A stretch of DNA of 4,579 nt, taken from the IMG/VR virus record IMGVR_UViG_2778261247_000015, positions 1 to 4,579 of that record. One strand, written 5' to 3'. The notes beneath the pieces are model-generated. The model searched no databases, was not told the DNA's origin, and saw nothing but the letters and a program-made list of their open reading frames with translations. This document shows positions 1 through 4,579 of this stretch, one piece after another (within the stretch, counting starts at the first letter, position 1; each line of letters begins with the position of its first letter). The stretch comes from a virus (taxonomy: Duplodnaviria > Heunggongvirae > Uroviricota > Caudoviricetes). A program made the translations under genes and the position numbers.

Positions 1-420
1 ATGACGGATTATCAGCCATACAGGAAAGGAACTGTGCTTGCCCCAACTGGGCCATGCAATCATCTTCATGTGATTTGTAATGATCCTGTTTATTACCCCG
101 TTAACGATTGTTATTGTGTTTTAGTTGTTAATATTTCTAGTATCAAGGATGGTGTACCCCACGATCCGTCTTGTGTCTTGAATTCTGGTGATCATCGCTT
201 TATCAAGCATCCAAGTTATGTTGTTTACGCTGAAGCTATAATTTGGCGAGTGGATAACATGGTTAGAAAGCAGCGATCGGGTGAGATTTCTGTTCATGAT
301 GATATGCCAGAAGCTACATTCAATAGAATTCTGGACGGTTTTGATATATCTGATGAAGTTACGCCAAAGAACCTTAAATTTAAAAATAAATATTGCGTAT
401 CATCTATTGATGATGAGTAA
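1..420 (+). CDS. Hypothetical Cys/His-rich protein (139 aa), unknown function; first gene of an AT-rich convergent cassette
   Basis: Complete ORF from ATG at 1 to TAA at 418-420; a start further upstream cannot be excluded because the window begins here. GC is visibly lower (about 38-40% by eye) than the roughly 50% of the minus-strand operon. Six Cys and several His (NHLHVICNDP, HDPSCV, DCYCV). No family recognised. Confidence 0.5.
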   Translation: MTDYQPYRKGTVLAPTGPCNHLHVICNDPVYYPVNDCYCVLVVNISSIKDGVPHDPSCVLNSGDHRFIKHPSYVVYAEAIIWRVDNMVRKQRSGEISVHDDMPEATFNRILDGFDISDEVTPKNLKFKNKYCVSSIDDE

Positions 421-459
421 ACAACAGGAATTGTTTCGGTATAACTTCTGGAGTTTTCT

Positions 460-633
460 ATGGAAGATCAAAAAGCAACCAAGCCACAGGTTAAGTTCGA
501 CACAATGAAAGCATTCGCAGGTATGGGGGCTGCTGTTGAAGTTCTGATGAAGGCTGCTCCTAATGCGTTCACTCACGCTACTGTCTCTGGTAAAGAGCAG
601 CAGGGTAAGCTTCGTCGTCGCAAAGCAGCATGA
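460..633 (+). CDS. Small hypothetical protein (57 aa, MEDQKATKPQVKFDTMKAFAGMGAAVEVLMKAAPNAFTHATVSGKEQQGKLRRRKAA), basic C-terminal tail
   Basis: Absent from the supplied ORF track; found by manual translation. ATG at 460 is preceded by GGAG (450-453) at 6-nt spacing; TGA at 631-633; a strong intrinsic terminator follows 24 nt downstream. Begins 40 nt after the stop of the 1-420 gene, so probably co-transcribed. Confidence 0.5.
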   Translation: MEDQKATKPQVKFDTMKAFAGMGAAVEVLMKAAPNAFTHATVSGKEQQGKLRRRKAA

Positions 634-652
634 TCATAGCTGGTGCTTTTTG

Positions 653-682
653 AAAACCCGCCTTCAGGCGGGTTTTTTCTTT
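653..682. terminator. Bidirectional rho-independent terminator between convergent transcription units
   Basis: AAAA-CCCGCC(657-662)-TTCA-GGCGGG(667-672)-TTTTTTCTTT. Perfect 6-bp GC-rich stem with 4-nt loop; T-run on the plus strand and A-run (T-run for minus-strand transcripts) on the other side. Sits 24 nt after the 460-633 stop and immediately after the minus-strand stop at 681-683. Confidence 0.75.
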
Positions 683-962
683 AGTGATGTTCTTTGTCCT
701 TCTGTTTGACTGTTCTGACCTGTTCCCACTCGATACGTCCTTCTTCTCGCCTTTTGTCTATGTATTCCGCAAGATCTTGAATATTGATGCAACGTTTTGC
801 TTTTTGTGATGTGCCGATGCGATATGTTGGAACGGGCAACTTACAAGCGTTTGCTTTTGCCTCTGCCGTGGCTGGACTCATACCAAAGTACTTTTGGCTA
901 ACTGCTGAGAGTTCAATGTTTGGGGTATTGAATTCAGCCATCAGTAAAAACAAGGTGTTCAT
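681..962 (-). CDS. Excisionase-like / PrtN-family DNA-binding protein (93 aa from MNTLFLLMAEF...)
   Basis: ORF 681-989; the GTG at 989 and ATG at 974 lack an SD, whereas ATG at 962 is preceded by GGAG at 6 nt, so 962 is the preferred start. Sequence ...SAVSQKYFGMSPATAEAKANACKLPVPTYRIGTSQKAKRCINIQDLAEYIDKRR resembles PrtN/excisionase-like small DNA-binding proteins of enterobacterial prophages (recalled similarity, not searched). Last gene of the leftward operon, ending at the terminator. Confidence 0.55.
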   Translation of the reverse strand: MNTLFLLMAEFNTPNIELSAVSQKYFGMSPATAEAKANACKLPVPTYRIGTSQKAKRCINIQDLAEYIDKRREEGRIEWEQVRTVKQKDKEHH

Positions 963-998
963 AATTTTCTCCATCAAAACCGGCTGCACCCGGGAAAA

Positions 999-1571
999 TC
1001 ATAATTCTGTGCTGGTGGCAGGAATTAATTTCTGCCAGATAGCGGAAACATATTTTGCCTGATGACGGGCATCAGCCAGGGCGTTGTGCCGTTCGCCATC
1101 GAAAGGCATGTCCATTTTGGGGTCGAATCCGATGGAACGCCCAAGCGTAACGATCGTGCGCACATCGTGATCATTCCAGTACGCCCACGGGCAGATTTGT
1201 CCTGCTCGCTCGTAAGCTCCACGTAAAATTACGTTGTCGAAGTTGGCTCCGTTACCCCAGACTTTTAAATATTTCGTATTGTCTGCGTGCCGATTGATGA
1301 AATGGCTCAGTTCAGAGAGTGCATCGCTGATCGACAAAGTATCATCAATGCAGATTGCAGCTCGTGCTTCAGGGCTTTGTTTCAACCACCACAGGATGGT
1401 ATCGCCGTCAGGTGTAGCTCCTTGCTTCATAGCACTGTCCAGGCTGACAACCGCATAGAATTCTTGTCCGATGTCTCCGGTTTCTGGGGTGAAGAACACC
1501 GCGCCAATAGAAACGATCGGCGCATCCTTATTTTTCCCCATCGTCTCAAGGTCGATCATTAAGTTGTTCAT
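999..1571 (-). CDS. DEDDh-family 3'-5' exonuclease (DnaQ-like fold, phage-type)
   Basis: Translation carries Exo I (MIDLETMG, D-x-E), Exo II (WGNGANFDNVIL) and Exo III (HNALADARH, H-x4-D) motifs. ATG at 1571 overlaps the upstream TGA by 1 nt (TGATG) with AGGAGG 7 nt upstream; the track's GTG at 1574 is a less likely start. Confidence 0.8.
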   Translation of the reverse strand: MNNLMIDLETMGKNKDAPIVSIGAVFFTPETGDIGQEFYAVVSLDSAMKQGATPDGDTILWWLKQSPEARAAICIDDTLSISDALSELSHFINRHADNTKYLKVWGNGANFDNVILRGAYERAGQICPWAYWNDHDVRTIVTLGRSIGFDPKMDMPFDGERHNALADARHQAKYVSAIWQKLIPATSTEL

Positions 1572-2167
1572 CACTTCACCTCCTGCGGCGGTTCCGGTAG
1601 CGGCATCCAGTGAGTTGCTTGCTCAATACCATTACCCGGCTTAATCGTTGCATCTCCGCGCCGAAAAGTGCTTCCGGTATAGCGTGCGGAGCATATTAGC
1701 GGTTCAACCAGAGAGCTATCGAAATTCACCGAAATGAGCACGTTCTGATTCTTCTCAGGCATTCGCTCACTACAGCTTATCCAACTATCCGGAGTTACCG
1801 GAGAGTTGGTTGACGTTTCCGAGGTTTCCCGAAAATTATTGGTTGACGAATCCTTATTTTCCCGAAAGTTTCCAGCCTGAAGCATGGCGGCGCGGTGACA
1901 CCAGATAATCCAGCCAAGCGCCATATCCCATGCCATGTATTCGCTATCGCCATTTTTTGCCCTGCGACGATCTACAGATTCCCCGAAACGCTTCTCCATA
2001 AATAATTCATAGGCTGCCCGTTCATCCGATACTGCTTCCAGCGATGCCAGCGCAATCCGTGCCAGCTCTTCCGCTTCTTCTGCTGGCAGTACAACGTTGC
2101 TACCAGGTCCGTATGTTTTGCGCCACTCCTTGATTGTCAGCAGTCGCTCTTTGGTAATAGTGGTCAT
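1571..2167 (-). CDS. DUF551-domain prophage protein (198 aa) with an internal 11-aa tandem repeat linker
   Basis: ATG at 2167 with AGAGGA 7 nt upstream. C-terminal region (...GNGIEQATHWMPLPEPP) resembles the DUF551 domain common in lambdoid early regions (recalled). The central linker FRENKDSSTNN/FRETSETSTNS is encoded by a 33-bp tandem repeat. Confidence 0.7.
   Translation of the reverse strand: MTTITKERLLTIKEWRKTYGPGSNVVLPAEEAEELARIALASLEAVSDERAAYELFMEKRFGESVDRRRAKNGDSEYMAWDMALGWIIWCHRAAMLQAGNFRENKDSSTNNFRETSETSTNSPVTPDSWISCSERMPEKNQNVLISVNFDSSLVEPLICSARYTGSTFRRGDATIKPGNGIEQATHWMPLPEPPQEVK
1806..1871. repeat. 33-bp imperfect tandem direct repeat (2 copies) inside the DUF551 gene
   Basis: Copy A 1806-1838 TTGGTTGACGtttccgaggTTTCCCGAAAatta; copy B 1839-1871 TTGGTTGACGaatccttatTTTCCCGAAAgttt; about 25 of 33 positions identical by manual alignment, in frame (11 codons). 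Confidence 0.7.
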
Positions 2168-2170
2168 GTG

Positions 2171-2320
2171 TTAGTCCTCTGTAGCAGGTGATACGCCGTA
2201 GTTGCATTCTTCATAGAATATGTCTCTGCCTATTTCTTCGGCATCCTCTGGCGTGTCTGCTTCAAACTCAACAACCTTGCAATCATTAAATCCTTCGATA
2301 GTCACGATGTACTTAGCCAT
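2171..2320 (-). CDS. Small highly acidic hypothetical protein (49 aa, MAKYIVTIEGFNDCKVVEFEADTPEDAEEIGRDIFYEECNYGVSPATED)
   Basis: The track gives a 76-aa ORF from 2401, but that would overlap the upstream gene by 80 nt. The internal ATG at 2320 has GGAG about 7 nt upstream and sits 1 nt after the upstream TGA (2322-2324). 14 Asp/Glu against 3 Lys/Arg. Stop TAA at 2171-2173 lies 3 nt before the next start. Confidence 0.45.
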   Translation of the reverse strand: MAKYIVTIEGFNDCKVVEFEADTPEDAEEIGRDIFYEECNYGVSPATED

Positions 2321-2321
2321 A

Positions 2322-2921
2322 TCACTCTCCTTTGATGCGAATGCCTGCGGCGCGTGGCACATTAACTTCCACGATGCGCACAGTTGGTTTGTACATCTCA
2401 ATCGCTGTCAGCCAGTCAGCGCCGGTCATATGCTTTTCTGCATCGCCATTAGTCCATTGAACCGGCACACCAATAGCTTTCATCGCAATTTCTATTTCCC
2501 CGGCAATGGCGCTTTTCCCGCAACCAGTAAAACCAGAGACAACGACAAGAACTTCGCCTTTGGCTGGTTTTATTTCCCGTGCTTCCAGTTCAGCAATACG
2601 CTTACTCCCATCCGAGATAACACCTTCGTAATACTCACGCTGCTCGTTGAGTTTTGATTTTGCTGCCTCCAGTTCGTCCAGTAGTGCAATCACATCAGGG
2701 TCACTGTCATCAACTACTGTTACGCGTGATTTTTCATAATGCTCGTCGGCAAGTGTTCGACCAATTTTGAAATCTCCATCACCACCATAACTGGAGCAGG
2801 CATAAGTGACATGTGCTCCAGATATACGCTGTATTGACATTTCCTCGCCACAAACAGAGCATTCAGGTACTGGCTTAGGTGAATAACGTTCCCGTAGCGC
2901 CTGATAATCAATCTCGCTCAC
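2322..2921 (-). CDS. Ea22-like prophage early-region protein (putative); N-terminal Cys cluster and central coiled-coil-like segment
   Basis: GTG start at 2921 overlaps the upstream TGA (GTGA) with AGGAGG 7 nt upstream. N-terminus MSEIDYQALRE... and overall architecture recall ead/Ea22-like proteins; CSVCGEEM...YACSSYGG suggests a zinc-ribbon-like element; LLDELEAAKSKLNEQREYYE...IAELEARE is coiled-coil-like. Family assignment is low confidence. Confidence 0.5.
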   Translation of the reverse strand: MSEIDYQALRERYSPKPVPECSVCGEEMSIQRISGAHVTYACSSYGGDGDFKIGRTLADEHYEKSRVTVVDDSDPDVIALLDELEAAKSKLNEQREYYEGVISDGSKRIAELEAREIKPAKGEVLVVVSGFTGCGKSAIAGEIEIAMKAIGVPVQWTNGDAEKHMTGADWLTAIEMYKPTVRIVEVNVPRAAGIRIKGE

Positions 2922-3403
2922 TGGTTGCCCTCCTTCATAAAAATAATCCAGTGGGTCTTGTCACCCTTTCCTGTTCGTTGACCGATAACAGGCTTTCTGT
3001 CGGTCAGTGCCAATATCTGGCGAACAGGTATTTGCGTTTCATTCCATTTAAAAATCAGAACGCCGTATGGCCACAACACACGAAAGGCTTCTTTGAATCC
3101 CTGCCGTAAATCATCACGCCAGGTATCTTTATTCAGCCGTCCATATTTCTTTCCCATCCAGGCGTTATCACCAACACGCTCAAGATGCGGAGGGTCGAAT
3201 ACAACCATCGAAAAGGATGCGTCTGCAAATGGTAGTGCACGAAAATCAGCTATCAGGTCAGGACTGATAATCAGGCGTCGTCCATCACACAATGTGTGCT
3301 CTTCCTTTCTGATATCGCTAAATATCGCCCGGTCGTCATTCTTATCGAACCAGAACATGCGACTGCCACAGCACATGTCGAGGATTGCTGCATGTCCAGT
3401 CAC
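2918..3403 (-). CDS. Small SAM-dependent methyltransferase-like protein (putative phage N6-adenine/N4-cytosine DNA methyltransferase, about 161 aa)
   Basis: ILDMCCGSRMFWF resembles SAM-binding motif I and VVFDPPH resembles the (D/N)PP(Y/F/H) catalytic motif IV of amino-methyltransferases. Preferred start is GTG at 3403, overlapping the upstream TGA (GTGA) with AAAGGAGG 6 nt upstream; the track's ATG at 3436 would overlap the upstream gene by 37 nt. Confidence 0.55.
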   Translation of the reverse strand: MTGHAAILDMCCGSRMFWFDKNDDRAIFSDIRKEEHTLCDGRRLIISPDLIADFRALPFADASFSMVVFDPPHLERVGDNAWMGKKYGRLNKDTWRDDLRQGFKEAFRVLWPYGVLIFKWNETQIPVRQILALTDRKPVIGQRTGKGDKTHWIIFMKEGNQ

Positions 3404-3750
3404 TGGCTGCCTCCTTTGCGAAGCCGTTCCGCCCATTCTTCAAGGGATTTCTCTGCATATTCACCGGACAGGCCATCAATCGGATGCGATTCATTAGCTA
3501 ACTCTTCTTTTGCTGACAGAATCATGCGTGTAACGTCGAAAACTTCAGCCAAAGGCTTATTGATAAATCCGTGATTGAAAGCAGCAGCAAGACGGCTTGC
3601 GGTATAGTTAATACCCTCGTTGCGAGCCTCAGCACGTACTTCATCGAATTTACGCACCAGATACTCAGCATTTGTTTCATTCACTTTCAGATCTCGCGGT
3701 ACACATTTCCCGCGAAGAAACCCTTCCATTTCGAAAACATTCATGCGCAT
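3400..3750 (-). CDS. Hypothetical protein (116 aa), unknown function
   Basis: ATG at 3750 with GGAG about 8 nt upstream; overlaps the HD gene stop (3741-3743) by 10 nt. No recognisable motif; predicted helix-rich, acidic C-terminus (EEWAERLRKGG). Confidence 0.55.
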   Translation of the reverse strand: MRMNVFEMEGFLRGKCVPRDLKVNETNAEYLVRKFDEVRAEARNEGINYTASRLAAAFNHGFINKPLAEVFDVTRMILSAKEELANESHPIDGLSGEYAEKSLEEWAERLRKGGSQ

Positions 3751-4277
3751 TTGCGTAACTCCGATAACTCGTTAAAACGTTCCATAAACATCCCATAGGC
3801 ATGGCCTGGCGACAGTGGAATAACTTTGAACATCTCTGTTGCCGGGATACCTTCCAGAACAGGCCAGAAAGAGCCATCATCAAGCCCGAGATCACGGCGT
3901 TCGGTTGCCAGCATAATGAGATCGGCATATTTCACTGGCGTGCTCATAACAGGAGGTAACCCGTATTTCTCACGGATTACGGCGTCTATTTTTTCTTCCA
4001 TCCGTTTATAGTCAGGAAGAAGTCGTTTCAGTGGCGCGGGGATGTCCTGGCAATATGCTTCTGTTGCATCATGCATTAACGCTTCAAAAGCAAATTCCTG
4101 CGGCACCAGCTGGCTGCAAAGCACCGCATGCTGGGCGACACTGTAGAAGTGTGAAAGATGTCCTGCAAAGCGACAGATATTTGAAAGGGAAACTGCGATA
4201 TCGTTAATCACGATGTCGTCTTTATTTATCTTGTCATAATAAAAATGCTTCCCGGAAAAAGTTTTAATAAATGACAT
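3741..4277 (-). CDS. HD-domain phosphohydrolase (YfbR-like 5'-deoxynucleotidase family, putative)
   Basis: Metal-binding pattern H...H...HD...D: NICRFAGHLSHFYSVAQHAV then LMHDATEAYCQDIPAPLK, closely matching the HD-domain signature of YfbR-type nucleotidases. The track start at 4289 is GTG; ATG at 4277 has GGAG 6 nt upstream and is preferred. Confidence 0.8.
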   Translation of the reverse strand: MSFIKTFSGKHFYYDKINKDDIVINDIAVSLSNICRFAGHLSHFYSVAQHAVLCSQLVPQEFAFEALMHDATEAYCQDIPAPLKRLLPDYKRMEEKIDAVIREKYGLPPVMSTPVKYADLIMLATERRDLGLDDGSFWPVLEGIPATEMFKVIPLSPGHAYGMFMERFNELSELRKCA

Positions 4278-4371
4278 TTCGTTCTCCACTTTATATGCGC
4301 TGCACCGCGCTGAATTCTGCTAAAAGGAAGCTCTCACCATCCGGTGATTATTGAGTTAATTACGTTTCCAT

Positions 4372-4393
4372 AAATGCCCCCGCAGGGGCATTT
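4372..4393. promoter_or_regulatory. Perfect 9-bp inverted repeat (AAATGCCCC-cgca-GGGGCATTT) in the intergenic region upstream of the HD gene
   Basis: Positions 4372-4380 are the exact reverse complement of 4385-4393 with a 4-nt loop. No U-tract on either strand, so not a canonical intrinsic terminator; could be an operator, an RNA stability or processing hairpin, or a weak terminator. Confidence 0.4.
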
Positions 4394-4405
4394 GCAGTAA
4401 TGAAA

Positions 4406-4579
4406 TCAGGCGGTGAAAGTACCAATAAAGGTTTCTACTTTGCTGTCTTTGAATTTCTCAACAAGCAGATCACGAAATTCGTTAGCCATTTCTTCCTGCA
4501 TCGCTTCCAGCTGAATAATGCGCAGAACCAGTACAGGACGATCGCCAGTGATAATGCTGAGGCGTAATTTAAACGGACG
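4406..4579 (-). CDS. 5'-truncated hypothetical CDS (C-terminal 57 aa ...[56 protein letters not shown])
   Basis: Open minus-strand frame runs from the window edge (4579) to TGA at 4406-4408 with no internal stop. Missed by the track because its start lies outside the window. Function unknown. Confidence 0.4.

Follow-up and report, generated by a model that had tools for sequence, protein, structure and literature searches.

A gene beside the dusA attachment site of an Escherichia coli prophage very probably encodes a PanAT toxin

What do the two plus-strand genes beside the attachment site of a lambdoid prophage encode, and do they belong together? The question is raised by the virus record IMGVR_UViG_2778261247_000015 of IMG/VR (Caudoviricetes), of which positions 1 to 4,579 were analyzed; this whole stretch of 4,579 nucleotides (nt) is referred to as the window. 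It opens with an open reading frame (ORF) for 139 amino acids (aa) at 1-420 on the plus strand, followed by one for 57 aa at 460-633 on the same strand. From 681 onward all genes lie on the minus strand and form a typical lambdoid early region, as revealed by a Pfam scan. An earlier sequence-only reading had described the two plus-strand genes as an AT-rich cassette, suggested to have been acquired separately and perhaps undescribed. Both ORFs exist as described, the 57-aa protein ending in the basic tail GKLRRRKAA, and both run against the minus-strand operon, whose last gene is that for the excisionase. The 139-aa gene is very probably panT, the toxin gene of a type II PanAT toxin-antitoxin module whose antitoxin gene, panA, lies just upstream of the window. 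By the same assessment the 57-aa gene does not belong to this module but is the companion of a gene with a GNAT fold.

The 139-aa gene and its upstream partner

Window positions 1-700 were compared with phage genomes by megablast, and phages Lys8385Vzw and SKA5 matched over the full length at about 99%. In both phages a 573-nt gene (190 aa) precedes the 139-aa gene with a 4-nt ATGA overlap; in Lys8385Vzw (locus L001) the genes span 4432-5004 and 5001-5420. The window starts exactly on this overlap (1-4, plus strand), bases 2-4 (TGA) being the stop codon of the off-window gene. The 190-aa protein of Lys8385Vzw matches the Pfam domain SocA_Panacea (PF13274) with an E value of 2.2e-19 and contains the GPV motif, in the form KFGPVMS. 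RefSeq names the upstream protein 'Panacea domain-containing protein' and the 139-aa product 'hypothetical'. The order on the chromosome is dusA' (attL), panA, the 139-aa gene, the 57-aa gene and the convergent excisionase gene xis.

The neighborhood of the 139-aa gene was examined at 53 loci with a homologue, comprising phage records, an Enterobacter prophage, a Shewanella integrative island and 43 genome contigs from Gamma- and Alphaproteobacteria. A PanA homologue lies directly upstream in 52/53 loci, and the sole exception is a contig of 277 nt. The commonest spacing is the 4-nt overlap (18/42 genome loci), the others ranging from -10 to +33 nt. The identities of the two proteins drop in step (86/82, 73/73, 63/54, 53/42 and 36/31%, down to about 31/35%). 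Among 5,426 complete E. coli genomes, the source of all genome counts given here, panA stands upstream in each of the 208 that carry panT. The pairing of PanA with PanT is obligate. The ATGA overlap may imply translational coupling, which would set the ratio of antitoxin to toxin. The true partner of the 139-aa gene is thus the upstream panA, which the window cuts away, and not the 57-aa gene with which the sequence-only reading had joined it in a two-gene cassette; the variable block ends between the two, at 446/447.

In Enterobacter and related prophages (loci L004-L007, 3432-4453) a 73%-identical PanA-PanT pair is found inside the tail module. The insertion point lies between a gpK-like (Prok-JAB/NlpC_P60) gene and gpI/gpJ-like genes. 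The two-gene unit is thus a mobile moron that can settle at very dissimilar sites in prophages.

Published PanAT modules are grouped into clusters, and Dataset S1 of Kurata et al. 2022 (PMC8832971) lists cluster T6 with the antitoxin first, overlaps of -4 or -1, and a distribution across Proteobacteria. A homologue 55% identical to the window protein, from Chimaeribacter coloradensis 2016-Iso4 (L014), is WP_101821906.1, the T6 toxin listed for that strain, and its -1 spacing agrees with the listing. For Pantoea septica LMG 5345 (L015) the strain and the -4 spacing agree with a T6 row of the same dataset. Judged by sequence, through WP_101821906.1 and not by direct alignment with the toxin of Pseudomonas moraviensis, the 139-aa protein is a member of the published T6 cluster. 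An exhaustive hidden Markov model (HMM) search gave 2,706 representatives of the toxin family at 50% identity with E ≤1e-3, and 924 with E ≤1e-10. Neither Pfam-A nor NCBIfam has a model for the family, and the structure of no member has been solved. The size of this family, and for the 57-aa gene a ratio of nonsynonymous to synonymous substitution rates (dN/dS) of 0.09-0.14 against the copies in mEp460, Salmonella and Enterobacter, indicate that both ORFs are real genes. Toxin-antitoxin function had been among several guesses, and it appears to fit the 139-aa gene as the toxin of PanAT. The element is not undescribed, as had been thought, since the T6 cluster is published and RefSeq already labels the neighbor with its Panacea domain.

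The validated T6 pair is that of P. moraviensis (PanT WP_083201923.1, PanA WP_083354365.1; PMC8832971). According to that report this PanT arrests growth, its cognate PanA rescues growth and co-purifies with it in a pull-down, and the toxin selectively blocks incorporation of 35S-methionine, that is, protein synthesis. HHpred grouped the toxin with the EndoA/PemK/MazF ribonucleases (RNases), and the GPV motif of PanA is described there as critical for neutralization. Later work by the same group concluded that standalone Panacea antitoxins neutralize directly through the Panacea domain. The window pair resembles the P. moraviensis pair in its antitoxin-first order, its overlapping or abutting genes and its predicted MazF/PemK-like toxin fold. 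In both pairs PanA has no extra N-terminal domain, and the N-termini are alike (MIFSEQKVAQ vs MFCEEKVAQ). The two differ in setting: the window copy lies in a lambdoid E. coli prophage beside the attachment site, whereas the validated pair is scored 'NotPhage'.

The RefSeq annotation from the Prokaryotic Genome Annotation Pipeline (PGAP) starts the toxin at a GTG codon at window position 34, which yields a 128-aa product (WP_014640052.1); the same product is found at L055 3534-3920. Two residues ahead of codon 12, P6 and G10, are conserved or invariant throughout the family, and the panA stop codon overlaps the ATG at position 1; both facts point to this ATG as the true start. The deposited GTG start is probably wrong.

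Profile searches and structure prediction had been proposed as a check on the two proteins. Pfam, NCBIfam and PADLOC gave no useful match; matches of the 139-aa and 57-aa proteins to ICMT and DapC fell far below the cutoffs and were dismissed. Structure prediction was informative for the 139-aa protein. An AlphaFold2 model built from 30 homologues reached a predicted local distance difference test (pLDDT) score of 92.8 and a predicted template modeling (pTM) score of 0.86, and the best 48 Foldseek matches were all MazF, with a probability of about 1. The modeled toxin has the SH3-like barrel fold of the CcdB/MazF superfamily. It is the predicted fold, by itself, that would place the protein in the MazF family proper.

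Residue conservation was examined in 126 representatives sharing 25-50% identity with the window protein. Of these, 98-99% keep H21, D55, C58, H65 and Y76, and at least 90% keep G63, F67, S72, G113 and S117. H23 and C26 are invariant among close relatives only. A structural zinc site formed by H21, H23, C26, C58 and H65 was considered as a family feature and was dropped, since conservation of H23 and C26 does not extend past those relatives. All signature residues of the family are intact in the window protein. It had been called Cys/His-rich, and it does contain six cysteines and six histidines; what is real is the H/D/C/H/Y signature rather than a general richness in these residues.

Several features set the protein apart from known MazF toxins. 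In MazEF and PemIK (Kid-Kis) the antitoxin is of the AbrB or ribbon-helix-helix (RHH) type found in MazE and PemI, whereas the partner here is a Panacea domain (PF13274). The window toxin is 25-30 residues longer than MazF and Kid, with a conserved 24-residue loop (residues 48-71) and three C-terminal helices. Its conserved set H21/D55/C58/H65/Y76 also differs from the catalytic Arg/Thr of MazF; the catalytic residues of Kid are Arg/Asp/His.

The attachment-site slot and the 57-aa gene

Phage mEp460 matches window positions 1-700 only from base 447 on (megablast). When Lys8385Vzw was compared with mEp460 by blastn, homology ended at L001 4238 and resumed at L001 5447, which corresponds to window position 447. 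The PanAT block, consisting of a leader, panA and panT, is 1,208 bp long (L001 4239-5446), and its right-hand 446 bases lie in the window (1-446, plus strand). Sister phages have in its place an 803-bp block with a GNAT-fold gene (L002 3198-4000). Homology resumes 13 nt ahead of the start codon of the 57-aa gene, so that the 446/447 junction falls between the 139-aa and 57-aa genes.

The 57-aa gene is present in 562 complete E. coli genomes, panA and panT in 208 each, and the GNAT gene in 358. Since 208 and 358 together come to about 562, the slot between the attachment site and xis is essentially two-allelic. In 189/208 genomes panT is at least 99% identical, and panA is always kept. The prophage is a lambdoid one that integrates at dusA, and the 139-aa gene is cargo that was acquired separately and occupies a variable slot flanked by the attachment site and xis. 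The 57-aa gene and the terminator behind it are backbone, judging from sequence comparison, and probably served as the right-hand recombination arm. Comparison of related prophages, also suggested earlier, thus separates the two genes: the notion of an acquired moron holds for the variable 139-aa gene and fails for the steady 57-aa gene. The low G+C content ascribed to the whole cassette is likewise confined to the first gene, with 37.9% (29% at third codon positions) against 48.9% for the 57-aa gene and 47.3% for the rest of the window.

In enterotoxigenic E. coli H10407 (L054 3826-4860) and in strain NR3736 an extra gene, annotated 'competence protein CoiA', separates the 57-aa gene from xis, so the slot can take up more cargo downstream of the terminator.

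The 57-aa protein occurs only in Enterobacterales. It belongs to phrog_2741, a group of unknown function (PHROG E value 8e-36), and matches nothing in Pfam or NCBIfam. Among 13 homologues, down to 67% identity, 24/57 positions are invariant. A gene for a GNAT-fold protein of 177-179 aa precedes it in 13/13 loci without PanAT, at a distance of 140-200 nt. The two genes occur together in three contexts. In mEp460, O157:H7 and Salmonella they occupy the slot from the attachment site to xis; in Hafnia they are flanked by the Q antiterminator and holin genes, and in Enterobacter by RusA/DUF968 and the lysis genes. Across these contexts the GNAT-fold partner diverges to 55-65% identity. Outside the E. 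coli dusA prophages, none of the 48 loci that carry a 139-aa homologue has the 57-aa gene. In the 208 E. coli genomes with the PanAT allele it is intact, with at least 95% identity, and the GNAT gene is absent. The 57-aa gene is therefore outside the PanAT module and is conserved backbone that lost its GNAT-fold partner to PanAT in this lineage.

With low confidence, the 57-aa protein may be a labile regulator or antitoxin-like partner of the GNAT protein; its tail GKLRRRKAA presumably resembles the C-terminal degrons recognized by ClpX. Alternatively it could be an independent small phage protein, kept with the terminator as a right-hand homology arm. Its survival in the PanAT genomes despite loss of the GNAT gene argues for independence, as do the gap and its own ribosome-binding site after the GNAT gene, and no homology to any antitoxin was found in Pfam, NCBIfam or PADLOC. 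Against independence stands the joint occurrence of the two genes in three contexts with a partner that has diverged so far. Independence is a tenable possibility that falls somewhat short of persuading us, and we continue to treat the 57-aa gene as the companion of the GNAT gene.

The spacer that separates the GNAT gene from the 57-aa gene (L002, about 3820-4000; columns 40-190 of alignment A4) contains three short palindromes, CTACAAATTGTAG, TACCTTAAAGGTA and CCAATCG-N7-CGATTGG. All three are conserved in E. coli, Salmonella and Enterobacter and could serve as operators or form hairpins in the RNA. A search of the PDB with the GNAT-family profile returned only spurious gp41 coiled-coil matches. 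In Hafnia prophages (L056 1150-2109, L057 1051-2109) a gene for a RelA_SpoT-domain protein of 319-352 aa lies directly upstream of the GNAT/57-aa pair. Situated between the antiterminator and holin genes, it is a possible toxSAS or CapRel-like gene, and the arrangement suggests a small cluster of cargo or defense genes.

Toxin action and its alternatives

By analogy with the P. moraviensis pair, PanT would stop growth through a specific block of protein synthesis. PanA, a standalone Panacea (DUF4065) domain with the GPV motif, would likewise neutralize it by direct binding. PanT may be an endoribonuclease in which H21 and H65 act as acid and base. Strand order would make H21 the counterpart of MazF Arg29, on the strand before the core VxxxS strand, and D55, C58, H65 and Y76 may complete the active site. 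For the prophage, PanAT could serve either in addiction or in defense by abortive infection when other phages attack.

Other systems were compared with the pair. SocAB of Caulobacter crescentus, a type VI toxin-antitoxin system, has an antitoxin with the same Panacea/SocA domain (PF13274). However, SocA is a ClpXP adaptor for degradation of SocB, a blocker of the replication clamp, whereas the PanA proteins reported as tested bind their toxins directly; the NCBIfam SocA equivalog scores 14 bits here against a cutoff of 190. The toxin-antitoxin or abortive-infection morons of prophages, such as CapRel-type toxSAS, share with PanAT a small toxic effector, a neutralizer and a variable prophage slot, and PanA is reported to pair with toxSAS toxins as well (PMC8832971). 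T6 PanAT differs from these systems in having no PADLOC match and no known defense phenotype.

A number of points weigh against these assignments. The presence of panA in this particular genome, where the gene is off-window, is deduced from its co-occurrence with panT in 208/208 genomes. In the literature searched, none of the pairs put to the test is close to the E. coli one, whose toxicity is assumed by analogy; the same searches found no paper on phage defense by T6 PanAT or by this pair. Kurata et al. saw no toxicity in E. coli for 8 of the 25 PanT proteins that they tested (PMC8832971). PADLOC-DB 2.0 gave no match at E ≤1 for PanT, PanA, the 57-aa protein or the GNAT protein. The 139-aa protein has no Pfam match at E ≤1, PemK_toxin included, and the toxin-family profile matched nothing among all PDB sequences at E ≤10. 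When the family profile was aligned by hhalign with single E. coli MazF and Kid sequences, the probability was 0.2%, which is not significant; the only piece aligned, VVNISS with VVPVTS, is a hint and not evidence. RNase chemistry is a guess, for the conserved H/D/C/H/Y set in the modeled fold is not the Arg/Thr pair of MazF. For the 57-aa protein, the lack of antitoxin homology described above counts against a labile partner. So does comparison with the GNAT toxin systems TacAT, AtaRT and KacAT: neither a GNAT-fold toxin beside a small gene nor an upstream antitoxin of the RHH type was found, the 57-aa gene lying downstream of the GNAT gene and across the 140-200-nt gap.

The conserved residues also permit a reading in which PanT has a MazF-like scaffold without being a MazF-type RNase. 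H21, D55, C58 and H65 would then form a metal site or a Cys-His-Asp-type centre, acting on tRNA (modified or cleaved), on a translation factor or on another target. The near-invariance of these residues and Y76, and the failure of canonical MazF/PemK profiles to match, favor this possibility, and the accessible sections of PMC8832971 offer translation inhibition and an HHpred fold for the P. moraviensis toxin, with no cleavage assay among them. On the other hand, the best structural neighbors of the model are all RNase toxins, and MazF-type RNases give selective translation arrest. Histidine is moreover a common general acid/base group in metal-independent RNases. A different chemistry is somewhat unlikely on balance, and an endoribonuclease is the activity we prefer for PanT. 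A broader conjecture, that T6 PanTs reuse the MazF scaffold for other chemistry around a His-Asp-Cys-His-Tyr centre and that an abortive-infection PanAT alternates in the slot with a GNAT and 57-aa labile-partner module, is unlikely.

The pair might instead be an inert or decaying passenger, either because PanT is non-toxic in E. coli or because the module has no role for the prophage. The eight non-toxic PanT proteins and the greater frequency of the GNAT block in the E. coli dusA slot are consistent with this idea. It is very unlikely given that the signature residues are intact, that panT is nearly identical in 189/208 genomes with panA never lost, and that the pairing is conserved over two proteobacterial classes. 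That the 139-aa and 57-aa genes form one unit, such as a toxin with its antitoxin, acquired together is scarcely credible: they are neighbors on one strand, with 39 nt between them and a common terminator, and the basic C-terminal tail of the 57-aa protein presumably resembles that of labile proteins, but the 57-aa gene is in 0/48 outside loci and in 13 loci without the 139-aa gene, the E. coli counts are 562 vs 208, and the 446/447 junction and the G+C contents separate them. A PanT toxin with panA as its partner remains the favored account of the 139-aa gene.

The rest of the window and implications

An intrinsic terminator at 652-677 (plus strand) closes the plus-strand genes. The terminator scan revealed a hairpin with an 11-bp stem, six G-C pairs and a TTCA loop, followed by a T-tract. 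The stop codon of xis lies 4 nt past it on the opposite strand. In the Enterobacter copy the letters of the hairpin differ, and the stem and T-run can still be seen by eye in the alignment. The sequence-only reading had proposed a bidirectional terminator shared with the phage operon. The hairpin and T-tract bear this out in part, but action in both directions is unproven; the scan calls the plus strand only, and on the minus strand just four T follow the stem. A ribosome-binding site GGAG, read from the sequence, precedes the 57-aa gene at 450-453 (plus strand), 6 nt before the ATG, and is kept in alignment with mEp460 and Salmonella. A scan of window positions 1-1000 gave no sigma-70 promoter, and the one sigma-70 candidate upstream of panA in Lys8385Vzw was no better than those in shuffled sequences.

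The convergent excisionase gene (681-989, minus strand), of the PrtN/pyocin-activator family, is the last gene of the early operon (PF11112, E 4e-23; phrog_1300 excisionase, E 8e-40). The other minus-strand genes identified with Pfam encode an Rv2179c-like 3'-5' exonuclease, DUF551, Ead/Ea22, an S-adenosylmethionine methyltransferase and a YfdR-like HD hydrolase. The DUF551 gene contains, at 1795-1880, a linker with a short internal repeat (NFRENKDSSTNNFRETSETSTN), seen in the DNA as repeated TTCCCGAAA-like units. The 199-aa Ead/Ea22 protein (2322-2921, minus strand) has weak P-loop-like matches in its C-terminal half (APS_kinase and AAA_16, E about 0.03-0.04). For a 116-aa minus-strand protein at 3400-3750 Pfam gave no match of any kind. 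The G+C-rich palindrome TGCCCCCGCAGGGGCA, at about 4372-4395, lies in the gap that separates the HD-hydrolase gene from the next minus-strand ORF and may act in termination or processing.

Scientifically the advance is a modest one, since the type of system, the mode of neutralization and the prediction of the toxin fold were already published. Any further novelty would lie in the conserved residues of the toxin, the biological role of the module, and the alternation of a GNAT/57-aa module with PanAT. Two 'hypothetical proteins' carried by hundreds of prophages of pathogenic E. coli (including O103, O111, O121 and O157 lineages) can now be defined, one very probably as a toxin of the published PanAT family and the other as the leftover companion of a GNAT-fold module, and the RefSeq start of the toxin can probably be corrected. 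The two-allelic slot between the attachment site and xis of dusA prophages offers a natural experiment on cargo function.

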